In this document: positions 4,233 to 16,108 of the stretch, in pieces
Layout of the letters: every line of letters begins with the position of its first letter
Numbering within the stretch: the stretch's first letter is position 1
From: a virus
Taxonomy: Duplodnaviria; Heunggongvirae; Uroviricota; Caudoviricetes
DNA length: 18,728 bases
IMG/VR virus record: IMGVR_UViG_2654588181_000008
Location: 1 to 18,728 of that record
Reading direction: 5' to 3' (one strand)
Translations under genes and position numbers: made by a program
The notes under the pieces: model-generated
Told to the model about the DNA's origin: nothing
What the model saw: the letters and a program-made list of their open reading frames with translations, nothing else
Database searches by the model: none

Positions 4233-5086
4233 GCACCATCCTGAAATGGGCGGGAAATAAAACCGCCGTAATGTCCGAACTGAAAAAACATCTTCCAGCT
4301 GGCCCGCGACTGGTTGAACCTTTCGCGGGTTCCTGTGCTGTGATGATGGAGACGGATTATCCCAGCTATCTGGTTGCGGATATTAATCCTGATTTAATCA
4401 ACCTCTATAAAAAGGTTGCCGCTGATTGTGAATCGTTTATATCTCGCGCCAGAGTTTTATTTAAGGAAGCAAACAGGGAGGTGGCTTATTACAACATAAG
4501 GCAGGAGTTTAATTACTCAACTGAAATTACTGATTTCATGAAAGCGGTATATTTCCTGTATCTCAATCGTCACGGTTACCGTGGGTTATGTCGCTATAAC
4601 AAGAGCGGGCATTTCAACATTCCCTACGGTAATTATAAAAATCCGTATTTCCCTGAAAAAGAAATTCGCGCATTTGCAGAGAAAGCCCAACGAGCAACGT
4701 TTATCTGCGCCAGCTTTGATGAAACGCTGGCGATGTTGAAGGCGGGGGATGTGGTGTATTGCGATCCGCCGTATGACGGTACGTTTTCCAGCTATCACAC
4801 TGATGGTTTCACTGAAGATGACCAGTATCACCTGGCATCCGTTCTTGAACATCGGTCATCAGAAGGACATCCGGTCATTGTTTCTAACAGTGACACATCC
4901 CTGATCCGTTCGCTGTATCGCAATTTTACTCACCACTACATCAAGGCAAAACGCAGCATCGGCGTAGCAGCTGGTGAGAGTAAATCTGCAACAGAAATCA
5001 TCGCTGTTTCTGGGGCGCGCTGCTGGGTGGGATTTGATCCTTCGCGTGGCGTGGATAGTTCTGCCGTGTACGGAGTGCGTGCATGA
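4229..5086 (+). CDS. dam: DNA adenine methyltransferase, Dam (GATC) family
   Basis: [35 protein letters not shown] and VVYCDPPY motifs, near-colinear with E. coli Dam as I recall it. ATG 4229 with GGAGG upstream and ATGA overlap with the preceding ORF; the track start at 4169 is an upstream extension. Confidence 0.9.
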
Positions 5087-7497
5087 GCCATGCTGATATG
5101 AACAACTGCAGCGGCTTTAACGAGGCCGCCGCAGCATTCTCATGGAACAGCCCGAAAAAGGCGATTAACCCTTATCTGGACCCGGCGGAAGTTGCGCCGG
5201 TTTCTGCGCTTTCAAACCTGATCACTCTGTACGCTGCCGATAACAAGCAGGAACAACTGCGCCGCGAGGCACTGAGTGATCAGGTCTGGGAGCGTTATTT
5301 CTTTAATGAATCCCGTGATCCTGTCCAGCGCGAAATGGAGCAGGATAAGCTCATTAGCCGGGCAAAGCTGGTGCATGAGCAGCAGCGTTTTAATCCGGAC
5401 ATGGTCATACTGGCGGACGTTAACGCCCAGCCTTCCCATATCAGCAAGCCGCTGATGCAACGTATTGAATACTTCAGCAGCCTGGGCAGGCCAAAGGCTT
5501 ATTCCCGCTATTTGCGTGAGACGATTAAACCATGTCTGGAACGACTGGAGCATGTACGCGACAGCCAGCTATCTGCATCTTTTCGTTTTATGGCAAGCCA
5601 TGAAGGGCTGGACGGCCTGCTGATCTTGCCTGAAATGAGTCAGGATCAGGTGAAGCGCCTGTCTACCCTTGTTGCCGCGCATATGAGCATGTGCCTTGAT
5701 GCAGCTTGTGGTGATTTGTATGCCACCGATGACGTTAAGCCAGAAGAAATCCGCAAGACATGGGAAAGGGTGGCGGCGGAAACCCTGCGTCTGGATGTCA
5801 TCCCTCCTGCGTTTGAGCAACTCCGCCGGAAAAGAAACCGCCGTAAACCCGTACCCTATGAACTCATTCCGGGTTCGCTGGCGCGTATGTTGTGCGCCGA
5901 CTGGTGGTATCGGAAATTATGGAAGATGCGTTGCGAATGGCGGGAAGAGCAGTTGCGTGCTGTTTGCCTGGTCAGCAAAAAAGCATCTCCCTATGTCAGC
6001 TATGAAGCCGTGATGCATAAACGTGAGCAGCGCCGTAAGTCGCTGGAGTTTTTCCGTTCTCATGAACTGGTGAACGAAGACGGCGACACGCTGGATATGG
6101 AGGACGTGGTAAACGCCAGTAGTAGCAACCCGGCGCATCGCCGCAATGAGATGATGGCATGTGTTAAAGGTCTGGAGCTTATCGCGGAAATGCGCGGTGA
6201 CTGCGCCGTTTTCTACACCATCACCTGTCCGTCACGTTTCCATTCCACGCTAAATAACGGCAGGCCCAACCCGACTTGGACAAATGCGACGGTAAGACAA
6301 AGCAGTGATTATCTGGTCGGCATGTTTGCTGCATTTCGTAAGGCGATGTACAAAGCCGGATTGCGCTGGTATGGCGTGCGGGTGGCTGAGCCGCATCATG
6401 ACGGTACAGTTCACTGGCACCTGTTGTGTTTTATGCGCAAAAAAGATCGCCGCGCCATTACTGCTTTGTTGCGTAAGTTTGCCATTCGTGAAGACCGCGA
6501 GGAGCTGGGTAATAACACAGGACCACGCTTTAAGTCTGAGCTGATAAACCCGCGCAAAGGTACACCAACAAGCTACATCGCGAAATACATCAGTAAGAAC
6601 ATTGACGGGTGTGGTCTGGCTGGCGAGATCAGCAAGGAAACGGGTAAATCTCTGCGTGATAACGCTGAATACGTTAATGCCTGGGCGTCTCTGCATCGTG
6701 TTCAGCAATTCCGCTTCTTTGGCATTCCGGGGCGTCAGGCTTACCGTGAACTGCGATTGCTGGCTGGTCAGGCGGCAAGGCAACAGGGTGACAAAAAAGC
6801 AGGTGCGCCGGTACTGGATAACCCGCGCCTTGATGCCATTCTGGCTGCAGCTGATGCTGGTTGCTTTGCCACCTACATCATGAAGCAGGGCGGCGTACTG
6901 GTTCCCCGTAAATATCACCTCATCAGAACCGCTTATGAAATCAACGAAGAGCCGACCGCCTATGGCGATCACGGTATTCGTATTTATGGCATCTGGTCAC
7001 CCATTGCAGAGGGCAAGATCTGCACTCATGCAGTGAAGTGGAAAATGATCCGTAAAGCCGTTGACGTTCAGGAGGCGGCAGCCGACCAGGGCGCTTGCGC
7101 CCCTTGGACTCGTGGCAATAACTGTCCCCTTGCTGAAAATTTGAACCAACAAGGGAAAGACAAATCAGCTGATGGGGACTCCATAACGGATATTACCCGT
7201 ATGAATGACAAGGAGTTGCACGATTACCTGCACAGTATGAGCAAAAAAGAGCGCCGGGAACTGGCTGCAAGGTTACGCCAGGTGAAACCGAAACGGCGTA
7301 AAGACTACAAACAGCGAATTACAGACCATCAGCGACAGCAGCTCGTCTATGAGCTGAAGTCCAGGGGATTTGATGGCAGCGAGAAAGAAGTCGATTTGCT
7401 CCTTCGCGGCGGCAGTATTCCGTCAGGAGCAGGCCTGCGTATCTTCTATCGGAACCAGCGTCTGAAGGAAGATGATAAGTGGCGGAACCTGTATTAA
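5083..7497 (+). CDS. A: Replication initiation protein A (rolling-circle endonuclease, P2 gpA family)
   Basis: 804-aa ORF containing [17 protein letters not shown] and a catalytic-tyrosine region typical of P2 gpA-like proteins; ATGA overlap with dam at 5083-5086. Confidence 0.9.
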
Positions 7498-7848: not shown

Positions 7849-8082
7849 ATGCGCATTGAAATAATGATCGATAAAGAGCAGAAGATTAGCCAGTCTACCC
7901 TGGACGCCCTTGAATCCGAGCTTTACCGCAATCTGCGCCCCCTGTATCCCAAAACGGTAATTCGCATTCGCAAAGGTAGCTCTAACGGTGTGGAACTAAC
8001 CGGACTGCAACTGGATGAAGAAAGAAAACAAGTGATGAAAATTATGCAGAAGGTGTGGGAGGACGACAGCTGGCTGCATTAA
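7849..8082 (+). CDS. DinI-like protein (DinI/MsgA family)
   Basis: MRIEIMIDKEQKISQSTLDALESELYRNL...QKVWEDDSWLH aligns by eye with E. coli DinI (MRIEVTIAK...DALAGELSRR...QETWESADDW). GAGGTG upstream of ATG 7849. Confidence 0.8.
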   Translation: MRIEIMIDKEQKISQSTLDALESELYRNLRPLYPKTVIRIRKGSSNGVELTGLQLDEERKQVMKIMQKVWEDDSWLH

Positions 8083-8090
8083 GAAACGTT

Positions 8091-8126
8091 GCCCCCAGGA
8101 GGATTCATTCTGATGGGGGCTAGTTT
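8091..8126 (+). terminator. Putative hairpin terminator after the DinI-like gene
   Basis: GCCCCCA (8091-8097) and TGGGGGC (8114-8120) form a 7-bp GC stem with a 16-nt loop, followed by TAGTTT; the T tract is weak. Confidence 0.3.
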
Positions 8127-8488
8127 GGGTAACGAGTGAAACGAGGCGTAAGGTGGGCGGCCATTTTGATAAGTGATTGTACGATTTGTGTTGTGAGTTC
8201 AACGGGTCGATGCAACGCTATCCTTAATCAAGGGCACGTTGCTCATACCCATCGATGCAATGAAAATCCATACTCATGGGGAAGACCAGAATGTCCCTGC
8301 CTTTTTCATTTTGTTCAGCACATGCACTATGGCCATTGCCTTCCCAAGCTAGCTATCGTAATCACTCAGCGTCAGTAAACTACTGAAAAATTGTTTTACC
8401 TTGTATATCAATAATGCCAAATCATACCCAAAAAATAGAAAATAATTAGATCGACAGGCAGAAGGCAATGTGAATAATCTTAAAAACC

Positions 8489-8518
8489 TTGACTGCCAGT
8501 GAGGTTTGGTTCTATAAA
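8489..8518 (+). promoter_or_regulatory. Putative sigma70 promoter for darTG (TTGACT-N18-TATAAA)
   Basis: TTGACT at 8489-8494 and TATAAA at 8513-8518, about 30 nt upstream of the darT start. Confidence 0.4.
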
Positions 8519-8549
8519 TAGACTTACGACTTTGAAAGGATGAGTTGAA

Positions 8550-9131
8550 ATGAGCGAAAGGAAAAGAATTGAAGATCAGTATCTTCTCTATCATTTAACA
8601 TGTATGGATAATCTACCTAGTATTTTAGACACAGGATTAAGATCTCGTGCATCAGTAAAAGGTGAGTTTGTTGATGTGGCCGACGGTGAAATAATAACAG
8701 GACGCGAAGCATTAAATTTGCAAACAATGGTTCCTTTTCATTTCTTTACTAAGAATCCATTTGATGGAAGAGTCCTGAAAGATCATAAGGAAAAATCATT
8801 TTGTATTATTTCGGTTTGTCGGGCATTTGCCAAAGAAAATGGTTGGAAAGTTATCCCTAAACATCCATTATCCACCAGTTCTGTTATAGACCTCTTAGAT
8901 TATGAACAAGGAATGGCCCAAATTGACTGGGAGCTTATGAATATAAGGGATTATAAAAATGCAGAATGCAAATCTGTATGTATGGCTGAGTGTTTATCAA
9001 GTGTAACGGTCGAGCCGAAAAATTTCCATTGCATCTTTGTCAAAAATGATAACGAAAAAAAATATGTTGAAAGGTTGATAAAACAACAAGGATTAAGTAT
9101 ATTGATAACGATCAACACTTATATGTTCTAA
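8550..9131 (+). CDS. darT: DarT-like ssDNA ADP-ribosyltransferase toxin (DUF4433 family)
   Basis: N-terminal LLYHLTCMDNLPSILDTGLRS matches the DarT/DUF4433 signature (LYHxTh..NL.SIL..GL) as I recall it; a C-terminal AECL segment is a candidate for the catalytic glutamate. 193 aa, AT-rich, directly followed by a macrodomain gene. Confidence 0.8.
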   Translation: MSERKRIEDQYLLYHLTCMDNLPSILDTGLRSRASVKGEFVDVADGEIITGREALNLQTMVPFHFFTKNPFDGRVLKDHKEKSFCIISVCRAFAKENGWKVIPKHPLSTSSVIDLLDYEQGMAQIDWELMNIRDYKNAECKSVCMAECLSSVTVEPKNFHCIFVKNDNEKKYVERLIKQQGLSILITINTYMF

Positions 9132-9135
9132 TTCT

Positions 9136-10107
9136 ATGATTAAGTATGCAAGCGGAAATCTTCTAAACTCTACATCGCAAGCTCTTGTGAATGCTGTAAA
9201 CTGCCAAGGAGTCATGGGAAAGGGTATCGCTTTGGCTTTTAAAGAAACTTTTCCCTATAATTTCGAAGTTTATAAGAGAGCATGCGCCACTGGTACAATG
9301 AAAATTGGACAGGTTTTAATTGTAGAGGAAAAGGGAAAAATAATTGTAAACTTTCCCACTAAAGATAGTTGGAGAAAAAAATCAACATATGATTTCATCT
9401 CGCAAGGCCTTGAATCTTTAGCAAAAATTATAGACGAAAAAAAAATTACATCAATATCAATACCACCTTTAGGCTGTGGTAATGGGGGCCTCGATTGGAA
9501 TAAGGTTGAGGCTCTTATTTTAAAAACTTTTCAAAATTTAGATAATGTTGATGTGGTAATTTATCCGCCTGCAACTAACAATCAACTTTCAAAAAATAAA
9601 AATGTTATTAATGCTAAGCATCTTTTGGTTCACTACGCCTATGGAAAATTAAAAGTTAAGCAAAAATATTCCCTTTATACAGTTTTTTATATTTGCGAAT
9701 GTATTGAGAAAGCAAATCTTTTTTTATTCGATTTTAAACATGGTCGGCCATACTCTTCTGAGTTAGAAAATATTATGAAGGATATAGCAAACCTTAAAGT
9801 TGAGTTGCAAGGAGATTTTGATGCTTTTATTGAAGATTATATTAATACTCATCAATCCAAAGAGTTACAAACCGAGTTTGGTAAACTAATCTCAACTTTA
9901 AATCCAAGTATAAGTTTGCTCAATGCTCTTAAAAATAAGATTGATTATACAGATAGCGTATATGTGATTACGAGAATTGCTAAAGAAAAAGATCATGGCT
10001 TGCATATTGACAATTTCAAAGAATATGAAAATATTGTGCAGCATTTAATTAAAAATGGATTGGTAATCGAAGATATTTTTAACGAACTAAAAATAAAGGG
10101 AAGTTAG
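9136..10107 (+). CDS. darG: DarG-like antitoxin: N-terminal macrodomain (ADP-ribosyl hydrolase) plus C-terminal domain
   Basis: GNLLNSTSQALVNAVNCQGVMGKGIALAFKETFP and PPLGCGNGGLDW are classic macrodomain motifs; starts 4 nt after darT. 323 aa. Confidence 0.8.
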   Translation: MIKYASGNLLNSTSQALVNAVNCQGVMGKGIALAFKETFPYNFEVYKRACATGTMKIGQVLIVEEKGKIIVNFPTKDSWRKKSTYDFISQGLESLAKIIDEKKITSISIPPLGCGNGGLDWNKVEALILKTFQNLDNVDVVIYPPATNNQLSKNKNVINAKHLLVHYAYGKLKVKQKYSLYTVFYICECIEKANLFLFDFKHGRPYSSELENIMKDIANLKVELQGDFDAFIEDYINTHQSKELQTEFGKLISTLNPSISLLNALKNKIDYTDSVYVITRIAKEKDHGLHIDNFKEYENIVQHLIKNGLVIEDIFNELKIKGS

Positions 10108-10713
10108 TAGCGCTATTTTCAATTTTTTTGCTGAAATTGCGCATGCACACTCTCACGCATTATAGATGCGGCGTTAATCCCGCCAGGAGTGTTGTTTAAT
10201 AAATTGAACTATTTCTGCATTGAAGGATCAACTTACGCATTCGCTGACAACGCAGGCACTCTCCTGGCTAAGCAGAAATTCAGAGTAACCAACTGGCACT
10301 TTTACAACAATTTTATTATCAGTTGCGGCTCCATGACTTTCTGGTGGGATAACAAAGCAATTAAGGCGTGGTATTGTAAGTATCCCGCATAATCATGCTA
10401 GTAACATTTGTCCCCCATGTAACCTAATTAAGGCAACTTCCGCTCTTCGCTCACAGTGAACCTCCATGTTTGTAAACCCGTATATTTCGTTTTTTAAGTG
10501 GTCATTCAGATACGGATTTTCACTTCTCTTGGCTGTGCATGACTATGCTGCATGAAATTGCATGATCGTTTGAGGATCGTTTTTGCTGAGGCCCCCCAGA
10601 ACTGGCGGGCTTTCGCTTATGTCATGCAGGTGCATGAAAATCACTGCATAAAGCGGGCAGGCGTGGCGGGGATACGAGCGCGCGTTAAGCTTCTCACATC
10701 AAGTCCAAAGTTC

Positions 10714-10742
10714 TTGCAACCCAAAAAGCTTACCTTTATCTT
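10714..10742 (+). promoter_or_regulatory. Putative sigma70 promoter for the three-gene operon (TTGCAA-N17-TATCTT)
   Basis: Hexamers at 10714-10719 and 10737-10742, about 35 nt upstream of ATG 10778; the -10 match is imperfect. Confidence 0.3.
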
Positions 10743-10777
10743 TCAATGAGATTTGTCTGCAAAAGTAAGGAAATGAA

Positions 10778-11842
10778 ATGGCAGAGAATGGCCCTATTGA
10801 AGACTTAGCAAAACGCATTTCTAACGATCTTATGAGTCGTTTTAAGTGGCAACAGCATGGCCCCTGTGACCAAGATTTCTCTTGTGATAATGAAACAAAA
10901 CATAAGCCTGAAGGTAAAAAACAAAAGCACACACACCCAGTGGATGTGGTATTTAGTTATAAAGATCCATATTTAAATAAAATTATTTATTTAAATACTG
11001 ATTTGAAAAGTTATAAGGCTGGTTCTATTAATGCAACAAAGATAGAGTCTGCATTAGAGTCTTTAGCAAAAACAATTGATTGTGCTCGATATAGCCAGGA
11101 ATGGTCAGAAAAATATAACTTTTCTCAAATTGATTTCGAAGTTCGAGGTTTATTATTTGTTTTTAATCATGATAATCAATTGCAACATGATTTTTATGAT
11201 TTCTTTAATCCTCCTAAACCTACTAAAGGAAGGAGAGATAAGGCTGTAAACTTAGAAAAGATTCCGTTATGTGCTGGTCAGCAAATTCATATAATTGATC
11301 CATTTCTTATTAATTATATGTTGGCAGTAACGAATGATATGAATGACTTAATTGCAAAAAAAGAATTTCCAGATGAGGATTATGGATTCTATTATCCTCA
11401 ACTTATTTTCCATAAGGTTGCTGTAACTGAAAAATACCTTCCTGCAACTATTGAAGTTTTGTTATCACCATTTATGATTATTAAACATGGTCCTGTTTAT
11501 AAATTCAATAGGGCTAAAGGTATTGAGGAAATGGTTTATCCAGAGGGATTTGTTATATATTACAATAGAAAAGGTAATAGCGATAATGAATTCTTTTATT
11601 TGCTAGACTTGCTTTCTAATTATCAAATTTTAGATGGTATAAATAAAATTAGAATAAGATTGGCGTATCGTGAGAAAGATAATAGAGTTATGTCGCATTT
11701 TCAGCGTGGGATCGAAAAGTATGTTCATGAGTATGGACTGGATGAAGAGGCTAAAAAGAGACTTGAAGATCTGGATGTCAAAGTTGTCTCTACTGTAAAA
11801 GAATTCTTTTCTTCTGAGGTTATTTCTTGGGAGCCGAAATGA
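10778..11842 (+). CDS. Unknown protein A of three-gene cargo operon (354 aa); possible PD-(D/E)xK-type nuclease motif near the N-terminus
   Basis: ATG 10778 with AAGGAA Shine-Dalgarno. HPVDVVF...IIYLNTDLK fits the hhhD-x(n)-(D/E)xK pattern. No Walker A and no transmembrane segment. Stop overlaps the next start as ATGA. Confidence 0.8.
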   Translation: MAENGPIEDLAKRISNDLMSRFKWQQHGPCDQDFSCDNETKHKPEGKKQKHTHPVDVVFSYKDPYLNKIIYLNTDLKSYKAGSINATKIESALESLAKTIDCARYSQEWSEKYNFSQIDFEVRGLLFVFNHDNQLQHDFYDFFNPPKPTKGRRDKAVNLEKIPLCAGQQIHIIDPFLINYMLAVTNDMNDLIAKKEFPDEDYGFYYPQLIFHKVAVTEKYLPATIEVLLSPFMIIKHGPVYKFNRAKGIEEMVYPEGFVIYYNRKGNSDNEFFYLLDLLSNYQILDGINKIRIRLAYREKDNRVMSHFQRGIEKYVHEYGLDEEAKKRLEDLDVKVVSTVKEFFSSEVISWEPK

Positions 11843-12903
11843 AAAATATTCATAGTGTAACTGACAAGGCTTTATGTGATGCTTTGAATCAAAAGCAGAT
11901 TACATTAAATGAAATACAGGATCTTTTCTTGGAAAGAGGTACTATTATTTGTAAAAAAACCCCTAGAAAAGATCTAGCCAAAAACTACTCTCGGATGACT
12001 CATGATTATTATGAACATCAGAAGATAGCAACATTACTCGGAGGTCAGACAAGAGCTGAAAAAAATACATGTGTAAGAATTGAATCTAGTGTCACTAAGG
12101 ACGATATCATAGTGGCAGCAGAGAAGTTAAAAAAAGAAATAACTGCTCAGGATGATTATTGTAAAATTATTATTGATGGTTCTCGAGTTCTTATAGATAT
12201 AAGATATCTATCGACCAATTATAGTAAAAGCGATTTTAAGCAGGCTGTAAATAAAGAAGCTTTAATTGAAATCGAGCCTATTGATAAAGGTTATAGCATC
12301 CGTCGTCCCGATAACGAGAATCTCAAAGATTATGAAGATCTCCTCCTCGGGCATATAATTTCGATTCAGAGTGAACAAGATAATGACAGTAATCTTGATT
12401 TAAAATTAAACGAAATTACTCTTGCTCATAATAGCTCCGCAGATGTTAGGACACTGTTTTTCGATAAATTAATCCGTAGCCTAGATGGATATGAATTAGA
12501 CGATGTTACGGATGCTTATGTATATCATCCAAAACCTGAAACAATAGAAGCAGAAGAGGGAAATACTGAAACTGGAGTTCATGTGTCAAAAGCATCTCTG
12601 AAAGGAGAGGGAGTTCTTAAATCTGATGAACTTAGTGATCTTTATGATAGGGGCTTTTATATCTGGAAAATAAAATGGAAGGTTAAAGAGAAACTAGCAG
12701 ACCCAGATATTTATGAACTCGAAGCTCAATTCGGAGATCCACTAAACTGTACTAATTTTTCATATTTAGTAAAAGGAGTGAAAAAATATAAGTCTAACGG
12801 TCAATATTTCAGTAAACCTCAAAAGCTTTCAGCTAGAGAAACCGATAGATTTAATAAATTAATTGAAAATAGAGCTTATTCTATTATAATGGAAATTAGC
12901 TAA
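11839..12903 (+). CDS. Unknown protein B of three-gene cargo operon (354 aa)
   Basis: ATG 11839 with GGGAG 5 nt upstream, coupled to gene A by the ATGA overlap (track start 11827 is TTG). No recognisable motifs; acidic and soluble. Confidence 0.8.
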   Translation: MKNIHSVTDKALCDALNQKQITLNEIQDLFLERGTIICKKTPRKDLAKNYSRMTHDYYEHQKIATLLGGQTRAEKNTCVRIESSVTKDDIIVAAEKLKKEITAQDDYCKIIIDGSRVLIDIRYLSTNYSKSDFKQAVNKEALIEIEPIDKGYSIRRPDNENLKDYEDLLLGHIISIQSEQDNDSNLDLKLNEITLAHNSSADVRTLFFDKLIRSLDGYELDDVTDAYVYHPKPETIEAEEGNTETGVHVSKASLKGEGVLKSDELSDLYDRGFYIWKIKWKVKEKLADPDIYELEAQFGDPLNCTNFSYLVKGVKKYKSNGQYFSKPQKLSARETDRFNKLIENRAYSIIMEIS

Positions 12904-12922
12904 TTCATCATAAGGAGTGGAT

Positions 12923-13618
12923 ATGTCACAGTTAAGATTAAAGTGGATGAGATTAAAGATCAGAACCAGTTCTGAAGCGATCTTTGATTTTATCAAAAAC
13001 ACCCCTTATTCTGATGCTATTGGTGCTGGTTTTACTAAGTTTGAAACTATTCACAATGGAATATCTGCGACTTTTAATAAAAAAACTATAATGTTGGAGC
13101 CAGTTTCTGATCCATTTGGTGATATTTTAGAGTTCGAAAGGATTGTTTTTGAACAGATTGGTTTTTCTATCCAAACATTAAGTAATAAATTATGTTTGTT
13201 GACTTTTTATAATCCTCCAAAGACAGTTAAGTCTTTTATTGATTTCTTGTCAAAAGGTGAAGGGGTAAATGTTGCCTATGGAAACTTGACGGTAGATCTC
13301 AAGGCTTTTATGAAAATAATTAGGGAGGAGTTTGGAGTCAAAGTCTTCGCCATCTCAAAGGTGAAAGTTTCAAATGTTCCTGTTACTGATAAAACAAGGG
13401 CGTGTTTAGAGCTGAATTCTAGTGGAGATGCTCTAAATGATTTGAAAAAATTTGTTTTGGATAATGATTTTAAACTCGATAAAATAAAAGTTGGGGGGCT
13501 ATATCATGACTCTAAATTTAGCTTTGAACTAACTAGTGGAGCCTCGGCAATAATTCCTGAAGAACATGTGTCGGTCTTTAATGATGCTATTTCTTATATG
13601 GAGCTTGCTAAATTTTAA
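12923..13618 (+). CDS. Unknown protein C of three-gene cargo operon (231 aa)
   Basis: ATG 12923 with AAGGAG 7 nt upstream (track start 12917 is GTG); 19 nt after gene B; followed by a strong hairpin terminator. Confidence 0.8.
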   Translation: MSQLRLKWMRLKIRTSSEAIFDFIKNTPYSDAIGAGFTKFETIHNGISATFNKKTIMLEPVSDPFGDILEFERIVFEQIGFSIQTLSNKLCLLTFYNPPKTVKSFIDFLSKGEGVNVAYGNLTVDLKAFMKIIREEFGVKVFAISKVKVSNVPVTDKTRACLELNSSGDALNDLKKFVLDNDFKLDKIKVGGLYHDSKFSFELTSGASAIIPEEHVSVFNDAISYMELAKF

Positions 13619-13665: not shown

Positions 13666-14316
13666 TTAGTTTATATCGTCAAATGTATATTTCATAAATT
13701 GCATGACATGGTCGCCTATCCATTCGTTTAGTTCTTTAATTCTTTGTTGTAGAGGCGTTAACTCATTACGTACAAAGACACGGCTTGCCTTCTCCACATC
13801 CCCAAAACCCCCAACATTATTAGGCATTATCCCCATCATCTGTGGCGGAACGCGATGTGCTGCCATCATGTCATCGCGGCTGACATTTTTGATATTCAGA
13901 AACTCATCCTTCGCCGCAACTTCTGACAAAGGGATGATCTGAAGGCCGTCCTTTTTGCCGTTAGGCGAGTACATAAACAGGTTGCGGAAGTTGCCTGGAC
14001 CTTTGGCGCTTTTCATCGCGTTGCGGAGGTTGTTCACGTCCTCCTGGTTCTGCGCAGCGTCGGTCATGTACATGATGAAGCCAGCATGACTGCCGTTAAT
14101 GTAATACTTTCGACGGAACAGCGTGGCAGACTCATTGAGCAGGGCGGACGGAATGGCAGAAAGATAGCCGGGCAGGCCGTAGATCTCCTGGTTAATGTCC
14201 GGTTCCATCAGATGAAAAATGCTGCCTTTCGTGAACTGATACGGCTGGGTTGTCATACCGTATTGCACAAACCAGTAGGTATTGCCTTCTGGATCACTCG
14301 TAACCAGATGGCGCAA
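13666..14316 (-). pseudogene. Q: Portal protein (P2 gpQ-like) remnant, N-terminally truncated
   Basis: 216-aa minus-strand ORF; the portal assignment rests mainly on position and orientation (first late gene, leftward, as in P2), and intact P2 Q is about 340 aa. No ATG start: the first in-frame codon is TTG, and it abuts the lysB start with an 11-nt gap. Confidence 0.55.
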
Positions 14317-14327
14317 CAGGTAGCAGC

Positions 14328-14756
14328 ATGAACCGGTTGCTGCTGGTTGTGCTGGCGTTATTACTGGCGTCGCTGGGCTGGCAGACGTGGCGGCTGGCTG
14401 ATGCCAGCCAGACCATCAGCACGCAGGCAGACGAGCTGCGGAGCAAAAGTCAGGCACTGGCAAAGAGCAACAGCCAGCTTATCAGCCTGTCCATTCTGAC
14501 TGAAACCAATAACCGGGAGCAGGCGCGGCTCTATGCCGAAGCAGAACAGACCAGCGCGCTGCTGAGACAACGACAACATCGGATTGAGGAACTGAAACGT
14601 GAGAACGAGGATTTACGCCGCTGGGCTAATACTCCTTTGCCTGCTGACATTATCCGGCTGCGGGAACGTCCGGCACTCACCGGAGGTGCAGCTTACCGTC
14701 AGTGGTTGTCCGCGAGTGACGCCGTGTCAGCTGGATCAGGCAGCGCCACACAATAA
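14328..14756 (+). CDS. lysB: LysB-like i-spanin (Rz-like)
   Basis: N-terminal transmembrane segment LLLVVLALLLASLGW followed by charged coiled-coil-like sequence; an overlapping lipoprotein ORF is embedded in another frame. Confidence 0.7.
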   Translation: MNRLLLVVLALLLASLGWQTWRLADASQTISTQADELRSKSQALAKSNSQLISLSILTETNNREQARLYAEAEQTSALLRQRQHRIEELKRENEDLRRWANTPLPADIIRLRERPALTGGAAYRQWLSASDAVSAGSGSATQ

Positions 14757-14889
14757 CGGTGATCTGAACGCATTGCTGGATGAAACGGAGGCCGCCTGGG
14801 CGGTCTGTGCAGACAAAGTGGACATGATTATTGCGTGTCAGGAGCGAAACAGTGAACAAACCACAATCCCTGCGCCACGCCCTCAATAA
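14599..14889 (+). CDS. lysC: LysC-like o-spanin (Rz1-like outer-membrane lipoprotein)
   Basis: Signal peptide MRTRIYAAGLILLCLLTLSGC with lipobox LSGC; overlaps lysB out of frame, the typical Rz/Rz1 arrangement. The start is GTG, so the exact start is uncertain. Confidence 0.6.
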   Translation: MRTRIYAAGLILLCLLTLSGCGNVRHSPEVQLTVSGCPRVTPCQLDQAAPHNNGDLNALLDETEAAWAVCADKVDMIIACQERNSEQTTIPAPRPQ

Positions 14890-15199
14890 AGCGGTGCCTT
14901 ATGTCCGTAATAACCCGGACAAACTGCATCTGTTTGTGGATAACGGTTCGCTGGTTGCCACCGGGGCCAGCTCCATGTCATGGGAGTACCGCTACACCCT
15001 GAACGTGGTGATTGAAGATTTCAGCGGCGACCAGAATCTGCTGATGGCCCCGGTTTTGCTGTGGCTGCGGGATAACCAGCCTGATGCCATCAATAACCCG
15101 ACGTTACGGGAAAAGCTATTCACATTTGAGGTGGATATTCTGCGCAACGATGTCTGTGATATCAGCCTGAACCCGAGAAGAAAGAAAGCACCACGGTGA
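14852..15199 (+). pseudogene. R: Tail completion protein R (P2 gpR-like), C-terminally truncated
   Basis: NKPQSLRHALNKAVPYVRNNPDKLHLFVDNGS...LLWLRDNQPD resembles the P2 gpR N-terminal two-thirds as I recall it; ends early after about 115 aa with an unrelated basic tail. GTG start with AGGAG upstream. Confidence 0.5.
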
Positions 15200-15564
15200 A
15201 GCGTAAGCGCAGGACTAAGAAGCAGAAGAAAGAGCCGGAAGCGAAGCAGGGCGATTACCTGGTGGGTACGGATGAAAACGTGCTGGTACTTAATCGCACT
15301 TATGCCAACCGGAGCAACGCCGAACGAGCGGCGAAAATGCAGTGGGAACGCCTGCAACGCGGCGTTGCGTCATTCTCGCTACAACTGGCAGAAGGTCGGG
15401 CAGATCTCTACACGGAAATGCCTGTGAAGGTCAGTGGCTTTAAACAGCCGATAGATGATGCGGAATGGACCATTACCACCCTGACGCATACTGTCAGCCC
15501 GGATAACGGTTTTACGACCAGTCTGGAGCTTGAAGTGAAGATTGATGATTTCGAAATTGAATGA
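15196..15564 (+). pseudogene. D: C-terminal fragment of tail protein D (P2 gpD-like)
   Basis: ORF ending ...VKVSGFKQPIDDAEWTITTLTHTVSPDNGFTTSLELEVKIDDFEIE directly upstream of ogr, where the D C-terminus sits in P2. No ATG start (GTG overlapping the R-fragment stop). Only about 120 aa against roughly 390 for an intact D. Confidence 0.45.
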
Positions 15565-15654
15565 TTCTTCGCAATGGAGAACTTTTAAGTTTTCAAAATG
15601 GAATAATGCGGTATCATTATTGTGAATTTAGCAAAAATGGGGAGAACTCGAAAA

Positions 15655-15873
15655 ATGATGATTTGCCCACTGTGTGGAAGTGCCGCCCATACTCGCAGCA
15701 GTTTTCAGGTATCTTCATTGACCAAAGAGCGTTACAACCAGTGCCAGAACATTAACTGCAGCCATACTTTTGTTACCCATGAAACTTTTGTTCGTTCGAT
15801 TGCAACGCCAAAAGAGTCAAATCCGGTTCAGCCGCATCCAATGAAATCAGGACAGGTGGCGCTCTCTCTTTGA
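15655..15873 (+). CDS. ogr: Ogr/Delta-family zinc-finger late transcription activator
   Basis: 72-aa product MMICPLCGSAAHTRSSF...KERYNQCQNINCSHTF... with the CxxC-x22-CxxxxC pattern and strong resemblance to P2 Ogr as I recall it; ATG 15655 (track start 15622 is an upstream extension). Confidence 0.9.
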   Translation: MMICPLCGSAAHTRSSFQVSSLTKERYNQCQNINCSHTFVTHETFVRSIATPKESNPVQPHPMKSGQVALSL

Positions 15874-15950: not shown

Positions 15951-15996
15951 AACAAAAAACCCATCAACCTTGAACCGAAATGGCGGGGTTGATGGG
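15951..15996 (-). terminator. Rho-independent terminator of ybjL
   Basis: CCCATCAACC (15960-15969) pairs with GGTTGATGGG (15987-15996); an A run on the plus strand at 15951-15959 gives a T run after the hairpin on the minus strand, downstream of ybjL. Confidence 0.5.
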
Positions 15997-16108
15997 CTCC
16001 ACAAAATGGGGACATCAAAGAAAAGCAGTGGCACTAATTAAGACTGATGCCCTGCGGAAAAGTTCTGCGGTTGTGCAAAAAAATTTCATTTTCAGGGCAA
16101 CTTCAGTT

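Follow-up and report, generated by a model that had tools for sequence, protein, structure and literature searches.

Introduction

Two described groups of DarTG systems bear on the locus reported here. Canonical DarTG2 is represented by the modules of Thermus aquaticus/Thermus sp. 2.9, M. tuberculosis (Rv0059-Rv0060), and EPEC E2348/69, in which darT precedes darG in an operon, DarT has an ADP-ribosyltransferase (ART) fold with catalytic Arg, His, and Glu residues, and DarG joins an N-terminal macrodomain carrying a catalytic lysine (K80 in the Thermus macrodomain, 5m31) to a DarT-binding C-terminal domain. DarTG1 of E. coli C7 pairs the toxin DarT1 with a NADAR antitoxin and ADP-ribosylates guanosine. 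The two toxins differ at the residue that contacts the base, since H119 of DarT2 contacts the thymine carbonyl and DarT1 has an asparagine there. In the literature that we searched, DarTs form several groups, and E. coli anti-phage DarTs belong to different clades.

A DarTG2 module of E. coli has itself been studied (LeRoux et al. 2022, Nat Microbiol 7:1028; Johannesman et al. 2025; HIDEN-SEQ preprint). According to the later papers, its source is an environmental E. coli isolate, and it protects MG1655; T5 infection frees DarT and phage DNA is ADP-ribosylated. The same papers report that slow growth strengthens the defence, that mutations in the phage DNA polymerase let SECphi18 escape, and that T4 resists by means of the macrodomain protein AdfM. 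Johannesman, Carlson, and LeRoux published primers to "amplify darTG2 including promoter," and the resulting fragment served for darTG2 expression from the native promoter. P2-like phages have their main documented defence hotspot between gpA and the portal gene.

Here, we analysed a window of 18,728 nucleotides of viral DNA and find that it very likely carries a functional DarTG2-type toxin-antitoxin/abortive-infection module, part of the cargo that a defective P2/186-like E. coli prophage holds in its gpA-portal hotspot. For this reading, the sequence, domains, catalytic-residue conservation, folds, near-identity, and context come from our analysis, and toxicity, DNA modification, and defence come from the secondary literature.

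Results

Two intact genes encode a DarT toxin and a macrodomain antitoxin

The module and its flanking sites comprise the following features.

8432-8549, plus strand: upstream region with the presumed native darT promoter and ribosome-binding site (primer site and consensus matches)
8550-9131, plus strand: darT, ATG start, 193 aa, DNA ADP-ribosyltransferase toxin of a short DarT lineage
9136-10107, plus strand: darG, ATG start, 323 aa
9136-9579, plus strand: darG N-terminal macrodomain, aa 1-148, ADP-ribosyl glycohydrolase by similarity to solved DarG macrodomains
9580-10107, plus strand: darG C-terminal domain, aa 149-323 and the stop codon, presumed DarT-binding
10107-10134, minus strand: reverse primer site, marking the 3' end of the functional darTG2 fragment that was cloned (exact 28-nt match)

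Both open reading frames (ORFs) are intact and point in the same direction across a 4-nt gap (junction TAA-TTCT-ATG), and relatives of the pair are arranged alike. An initial sequence-only reading had described a DUF4433-type darT followed after 4 nt by a macrodomain gene and had interpreted the two as DarTG. The coordinates held, and profile searches bore out the interpretation. The first product matched Pfam PF14487 (DarT, formerly DUF4433; E = 1.1e-21, 78 bits against a cutoff of 22.5, residues 14-192) and PADLOC DarT (E = 1.3e-36, 124 bits), while the second matched Pfam Macro (E = 6.5e-19, residues 18-127) and PADLOC DarG (E = 1.6e-79, residues 1-280). Since these scores are far above the chance level, we rejected a chance ORF pair.

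The module was present in 10 of 5,426 complete E. coli genomes, always on the chromosome and with 99.3 to 100% DNA identity, and the RefSeq annotation of these 10 genomes calls both genes. A distant blastn search of E. coli genomes revealed no diverged alleles outside the same 10 genomes, and canonical E. coli darTG, that of EPEC included, was not detectable at the DNA level with the window as the query. Megablast against 50,697 phage records gave no match to the module; a protein search gave a single one, at 38% identity, in an unannotated faecal phage contig.

Two promoter-like elements precede darT, each by consensus match only: TCGACA-16-AATAAT at 8451-8478 and a second candidate identified by eye, TTGACT-18-TATAAA, at ~8489-8518. 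An AAGGA motif (8536-8540) lies 9 nt ahead of the darT ATG. Given the 4-nt gap and the lack of a strong ribosome-binding site ahead of darG, the arrangement fits translational coupling of the two genes. In two genomes, RefSeq gives darG the shorter start Met27 (297 aa), which follows an AAGGAG at 9205-9210; in strain S40 the annotation begins at Met1 (323 aa). Met1 is the correct start, since the first 26 residues are covered by the alignments to solved DarG macrodomains and contain the invariant N19 and N22. No meaningful repeats, terminators, or Rfam RNAs were found within 8000-10900.

The module is an allele of E. coli DarTG2

In addition to the exact reverse primer site at 10107-10134, the genome-annealing part of the published darTG2 forward primer matched 8432-8458 with one mismatch, and no such primer matches arose in 200 shuffles. 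Strain S40 contains the full 30-nt forward primer sequence without mismatch, and the only differences between its allele and that of the window are DarT R175G and DarG Y276H (the window having R175 and Y276). The three alleles compared differed by at most one residue per protein, and the intact prophage of strain Br_178_kylling encodes the same DarT and DarG protein sequences as the window. Since the published primer sites match and the S40 allele is one residue off in each protein, the window carries an allele of E. coli DarTG2. Judging from the clone sequence that the primers predict, the locus appears to be the E. coli DarTG2 of LeRoux et al. 2022. The darTG module is thus already known and not new. 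A literature search for its RefSeq protein accessions found no mention of them. Relative to the studied system, the window has the same operon, promoter fragment, and domains; it differs only allelically and sits in a deleted prophage beside a 3HP-type system.

A defective P2/186-like prophage carries the module in its defence hotspot

The window represents a P2/186-like E. coli prophage inserted between rcdA and rybB/ybjL. Its genes run in the order integrase, CI repressor, CII, Dam methylase, gene A, DinI-like gene, darTG, three genes, and portal, and the following features delimit and fill the hotspot.

5083-7497, plus strand: P2-type replication gene A (Pfam Phage_GPA, 422 bits), which with the DinI-like gene forms the left border
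7849-8082, plus strand: DinI-like gene (Pfam DinI, 80 bits; RefSeq annotation of the matching prophage)
10778-13618, plus strand: candidate defence system of 3HP type, with three genes, filling the second hotspot slot
13666-14283, minus strand: truncated portal gene, right border (TIGR01540 positions 111-316 of 320 only)

With replication gene A on one side and portal gene Q on the other, the module occupies the gpA-portal interval of a P2-like prophage, and an intact version of this interval is found at three further loci (L001-L003). In the window, identity to the intact prophage L001 stops at ~14283. Most virion genes have been deleted, and the prophage is defective, with its early region and defence cargo intact. 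The remaining tail consists of a LysB-like gene (14328-14756), a gpR fragment (14831-15199), a gpD C-terminal fragment (15196-15564), and ogr (15622-15873), after which host genes begin. The RybB sRNA gene (15951-16029, minus strand; Rfam, 105 bits) lies just outside the ogr end, ahead of ybjL, which places the insertion between rcdA and rybB.

In the three carriers examined, the sequence is common from gpA through window position 10684, differs in the next slot, and becomes similar again at the portal gene. The second slot holds the 3HP-type genes in the window and Br_178_kylling, three other hypothetical genes in S40, and an AIPR gene in 2018-18.25PC. The locus therefore provides an example of modular P2-hotspot cargo, with the same darTG beside three different neighbours and surviving in a prophage without virion genes. 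In the 670-bp spacer after darG, positions 10264-10371 match S40 DNA annotated as an incomplete IS5/IS1182 transposase; this transposase-like stretch may be a scar of cargo assembly.

The three genes of the second slot matched PADLOC Hp1 (E = 1.2e-64), Hp2 (E = 1.6e-39), and Hp3 (E = 1.1e-10), and we presume that they are the 3HP system of Rousset et al. The Hp1 gene also weakly matched NCBIfam GapS4a (E = 3.7e-10). Neither DarT nor 3HP is mentioned in the main text of Rousset 2022 or of the 2026 NAR paper on P2/P4 hotspots.

The toxin belongs to a short DarT lineage

Whereas canonical DarT2 toxins have ~210 to 220 aa, the window toxin has 193 aa. It scored 54.2 bits against NCBIfam toxin_DarT (NF048013), below the curated cutoff of 150 for a canonical ortholog, and sequence searches from it reached Thermus DarT2 weakly and over the N-terminal part only. 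Its AF2 model (pLDDT, 90.2) nevertheless has the DarT ART fold (TM ~0.8 to canonical DarTG2 toxins). The best PDB matches were Thermus DarT2 (TM 0.78 to 0.82) and the M. tuberculosis DarT in 7yk3, and further matches included a Thermosipho DarT-macro fusion (TM 0.72) and E. coli C7 DarT1 (TM 0.68; 8baq). Sequence identity was 16 to 23% throughout these structural matches and 16 to 19% to Thermus and M. tuberculosis DarT2.

In profile alignments, H15, R52, H64, H105, and E147 of the window toxin correspond to H13, R51, Y71, H119, and E160 of Thermus DarT. Counterparts of the NAD-binding His13, Arg51, the thymine-contacting His119, and Glu160 are accordingly all present, and the five window residues are conserved in 73 to 74 of the 74 members of the short-DarT lineage. 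The same alignments show two substitutions, Tyr71 to His64 and Met78 to Phe71, and the position of the nicotinamide-stacking Tyr71 is an invariant histidine in the short lineage. These data indicate that the window toxin belongs to a DarT lineage of ~190 aa and is not an ortholog of the canonical Thermus/Mtb-type DarT2.

Since H105, the counterpart of H119, is conserved and the partner is a DarG-type macrodomain protein, the base modified by DarT is most probably thymidine in single-stranded DNA. The module has the DarT-fold toxin, the toxin-antitoxin logic, and phage defence in common with DarTG1, but its antitoxin is a macrodomain rather than a NADAR protein and its base-contacting residue is His rather than Asn. 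We rejected identity with DarTG1, as the antitoxin has a Macro domain and gave no NADAR match.

The C-terminal domain of DarG is a fast-evolving form of a known domain

The DarG macrodomain aligned from residue 1 with the solved macrodomains of M. tuberculosis (5m3i; 151.6 bits) and Thermus (5m31; 131.6 bits), being about half identical to that of M. tuberculosis DarG. Its FPTK lysine, K76, is conserved in at least 90% of aligned DarGs, so the antitoxin carries an N-terminal DarG-type macrodomain with the catalytic lysine. Full-length DarG scored 230.5 bits against NCBIfam antitoxin_DarG (NF048014), short of the curated cutoff of 250 for a canonical ortholog.

The C-terminal ~170 aa of DarG had been described from the sequence as featureless and possibly subtype defining. 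The first description stands as far as Pfam and NCBIfam are concerned, since the domain alone gave no NCBIfam match and its Pfam result (DUF4279, E = 0.0055) was at noise level. Single-sequence searches likewise recovered four relatives when word indexed and six by exhaustive phmmer against 1.84 billion representatives. At the profile and structure levels, however, the domain does have recognisable features, and three independent tests assign it to the C-terminal domain of DarG. The PADLOC DarG profile aligned co-linearly with the C-terminal part alone (E = 2.5e-4), and a profile of the C termini of the close clade matched a profile of canonical DarG C termini with 98.2% probability (E = 4.5e-14, 156 columns). 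The fold is that of the M. tuberculosis DarG domain present in the DarT complex structure. Given the few relatives on the one hand and the clear profile and fold matches on the other, single-sequence methods fail on this domain where profile and structure methods succeed.

By profile and fold, the antitoxin therefore has the C-terminal DarT-binding domain of DarTG2, and the domain would be expected to bind DarT. In comparison with canonical DarG, the window protein is ~30 aa shorter, with the missing ~30 residues in the C-terminal domain, where the W..RK segment is absent; this domain is ~8% identical to that of M. tuberculosis. The C-terminal half is thus a fast-evolving form of a known domain rather than a new domain.

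Short DarTs usually accompany a canonical-type DarT

In Marinobacter, Yersinia ruckeri, and Pseudomonas alliivorans, the gene for a ~190-aa DarT relative (~50% identity) stands first in a row of three, ahead of another DarT gene and a Macro gene. The short DarTs of these three-gene operons are 45 to 53% identical to the window DarT and have the same invariant residues. The second DarT (~214 aa) scored 252 to 254 bits on toxin_DarT and the DarG (355 to 370 aa) scored 451 bits; based on these NCBIfam equivalog scores, the second DarT and DarG constitute the canonical pair.

We surveyed 80 species-representative short-DarT loci, with ORFs classed by three HMMs, and found the short DarT beside a canonical-type DarT and one DarG in 70 of them. 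The 80 loci were arranged as follows.

64 loci: shortDarT - DarT - DarG, plain co-directional
3 loci: co-directional variants (a split short gene in one, an additional DarT fragment in another, a permuted order in the third)
3 loci: convergent version with a 201-aa DarT
10 loci: short DarT and DarG only

Among the co-resident canonical-type DarTs, the catalytic Arg, Tyr, His, and Glu are conserved in 59 to 60 of the 60 full-length proteins examined. In the convergent variant (L028, L046, and L073, from Psychromonas, Vibrio tapetis, and Shewanella), the short DarT faces DarG and a divergent 201-aa DarT on the opposite strand. [quoted passage not shown] Operons with two DarT genes were not described in the literature that we searched.

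The 10 two-gene loci comprise a close Enterobacterales clade (Kluyvera, Rahnella, Proteus, and Serratia) together with Brevibacillus, Cohnella, two cyanobacteria, and one Vibrio, and the E. coli module of the window belongs to the Enterobacterales clade. In contrast to the three-gene operons of Pseudomonas, Marinobacter, Yersinia ruckeri, and many others, this clade is without the second toxin and its DarG is shortened. A neighbour-joining tree of short DarTs, built without support values, nested the Enterobacterales two-gene clade among three-gene lineages, which tentatively suggests that the second toxin was lost in this clade.

Discussion

Proposed mechanism and alternative explanations

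In the mechanism that we propose, DarT freed from DarG would use NAD+ to ADP-ribosylate single-stranded DNA, most probably at thymidine, and this modification would block replication of phage and host DNA alike. The DarG macrodomain would strip ADP-ribose from DNA while its C-terminal domain would bind and sequester DarT, and phage infection would upset the DarT/DarG balance and release the toxin. The module is presumably still active in the decayed prophage.

One alternative concerns the modified base: "thymidine" would be inherited from the class name, and the chemistry of the short lineage would differ in base, sequence motif, or nucleic acid. The low toxin_DarT score and the weak, N-terminal match to Thermus DarT2 are in keeping with such a difference, and the His64 and Phe71 substitutions favour it. 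Guanine- and cytidine-specific DarT relatives exist, and the coexistence of short and canonical-type DarTs in the surveyed loci would be sensible if their targets differed. We nonetheless consider a different chemistry unlikely: the partner macrodomain is highly similar to thymidine-ADPr hydrolases, the thymine-contacting His of DarT2 is invariant in the short lineage where DarT1 uses Asn, the DarT model is nearer to DarT2 than to DarT1, and E. coli DarTG2 is countered by the phage macrodomain protein AdfM and not by NADAR proteins.

Two further alternatives concern the role of the module rather than its chemistry. It could act mainly in addiction, stabilising the prophage remnant, with phage defence incidental or absent; the loss of most late genes beside still-intact cargo would accord with this, and a stabilising role has been proposed in the literature for DarTG inserted in restriction-modification operons. 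Yet a near-identical module protects against phages when placed alone on a plasmid, and hotspot cargo consists mostly of defence systems, the neighbouring slot here also being of defence type, which makes a mainly stabilising role very unlikely. The notion that darTG is an inactive relic, its ORFs intact but expression or function lost, draws on the defective state of the host element and on the one-residue difference per protein from the exact-primer allele. Against it, neither ORF is truncated and every conserved catalytic residue is present, the same proteins occur in the intact Br_178_kylling prophage, and selection would act against a toxin whose antitoxin no longer worked, so that we give decay hardly any credence. 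A functional DarTG2-type defence module thus remains our preferred reading.

Relationship to the wider DarT family

As found, the locus matters little, being one more example of an already characterised defence system at an expected site. Potentially of broader consequence is the ancestry of the toxin: the DarT of the standard E. coli DarTG2 model is a member of a paralogous lineage, most of whose loci also encode a canonical DarT. This relationship raises testable questions of target specificity and of how one DarG controls two toxins. We offer as a speculation, and a doubtful one, that E. coli DarTG2 is a reduced form of a widespread and apparently undescribed three-gene system, in which two catalytically intact DarTs share one DarG. 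The short DarT would then recognise a base or motif of its own and be neutralised in its own way, and in the Enterobacterales two-gene clade the C-terminal domain of DarG would have been reshaped to bind it. If this were true, results on Thermus and M. tuberculosis DarT2 would not be simply transferable to the E. coli phage-defence model. The idea of an accessory paralog whose specificity and control are unlike those of canonical DarT2 bears on the wider family and not on the window locus.

Close two-gene relatives were likewise located on mobile or defence DNA. In Proteus (L014 and L015), the DNA next to the pair is the ogr/gpD end of a P2-like prophage, and in Ewingella (L004), a restriction gene of Mrr type and a DUF2971 gene are nearby.
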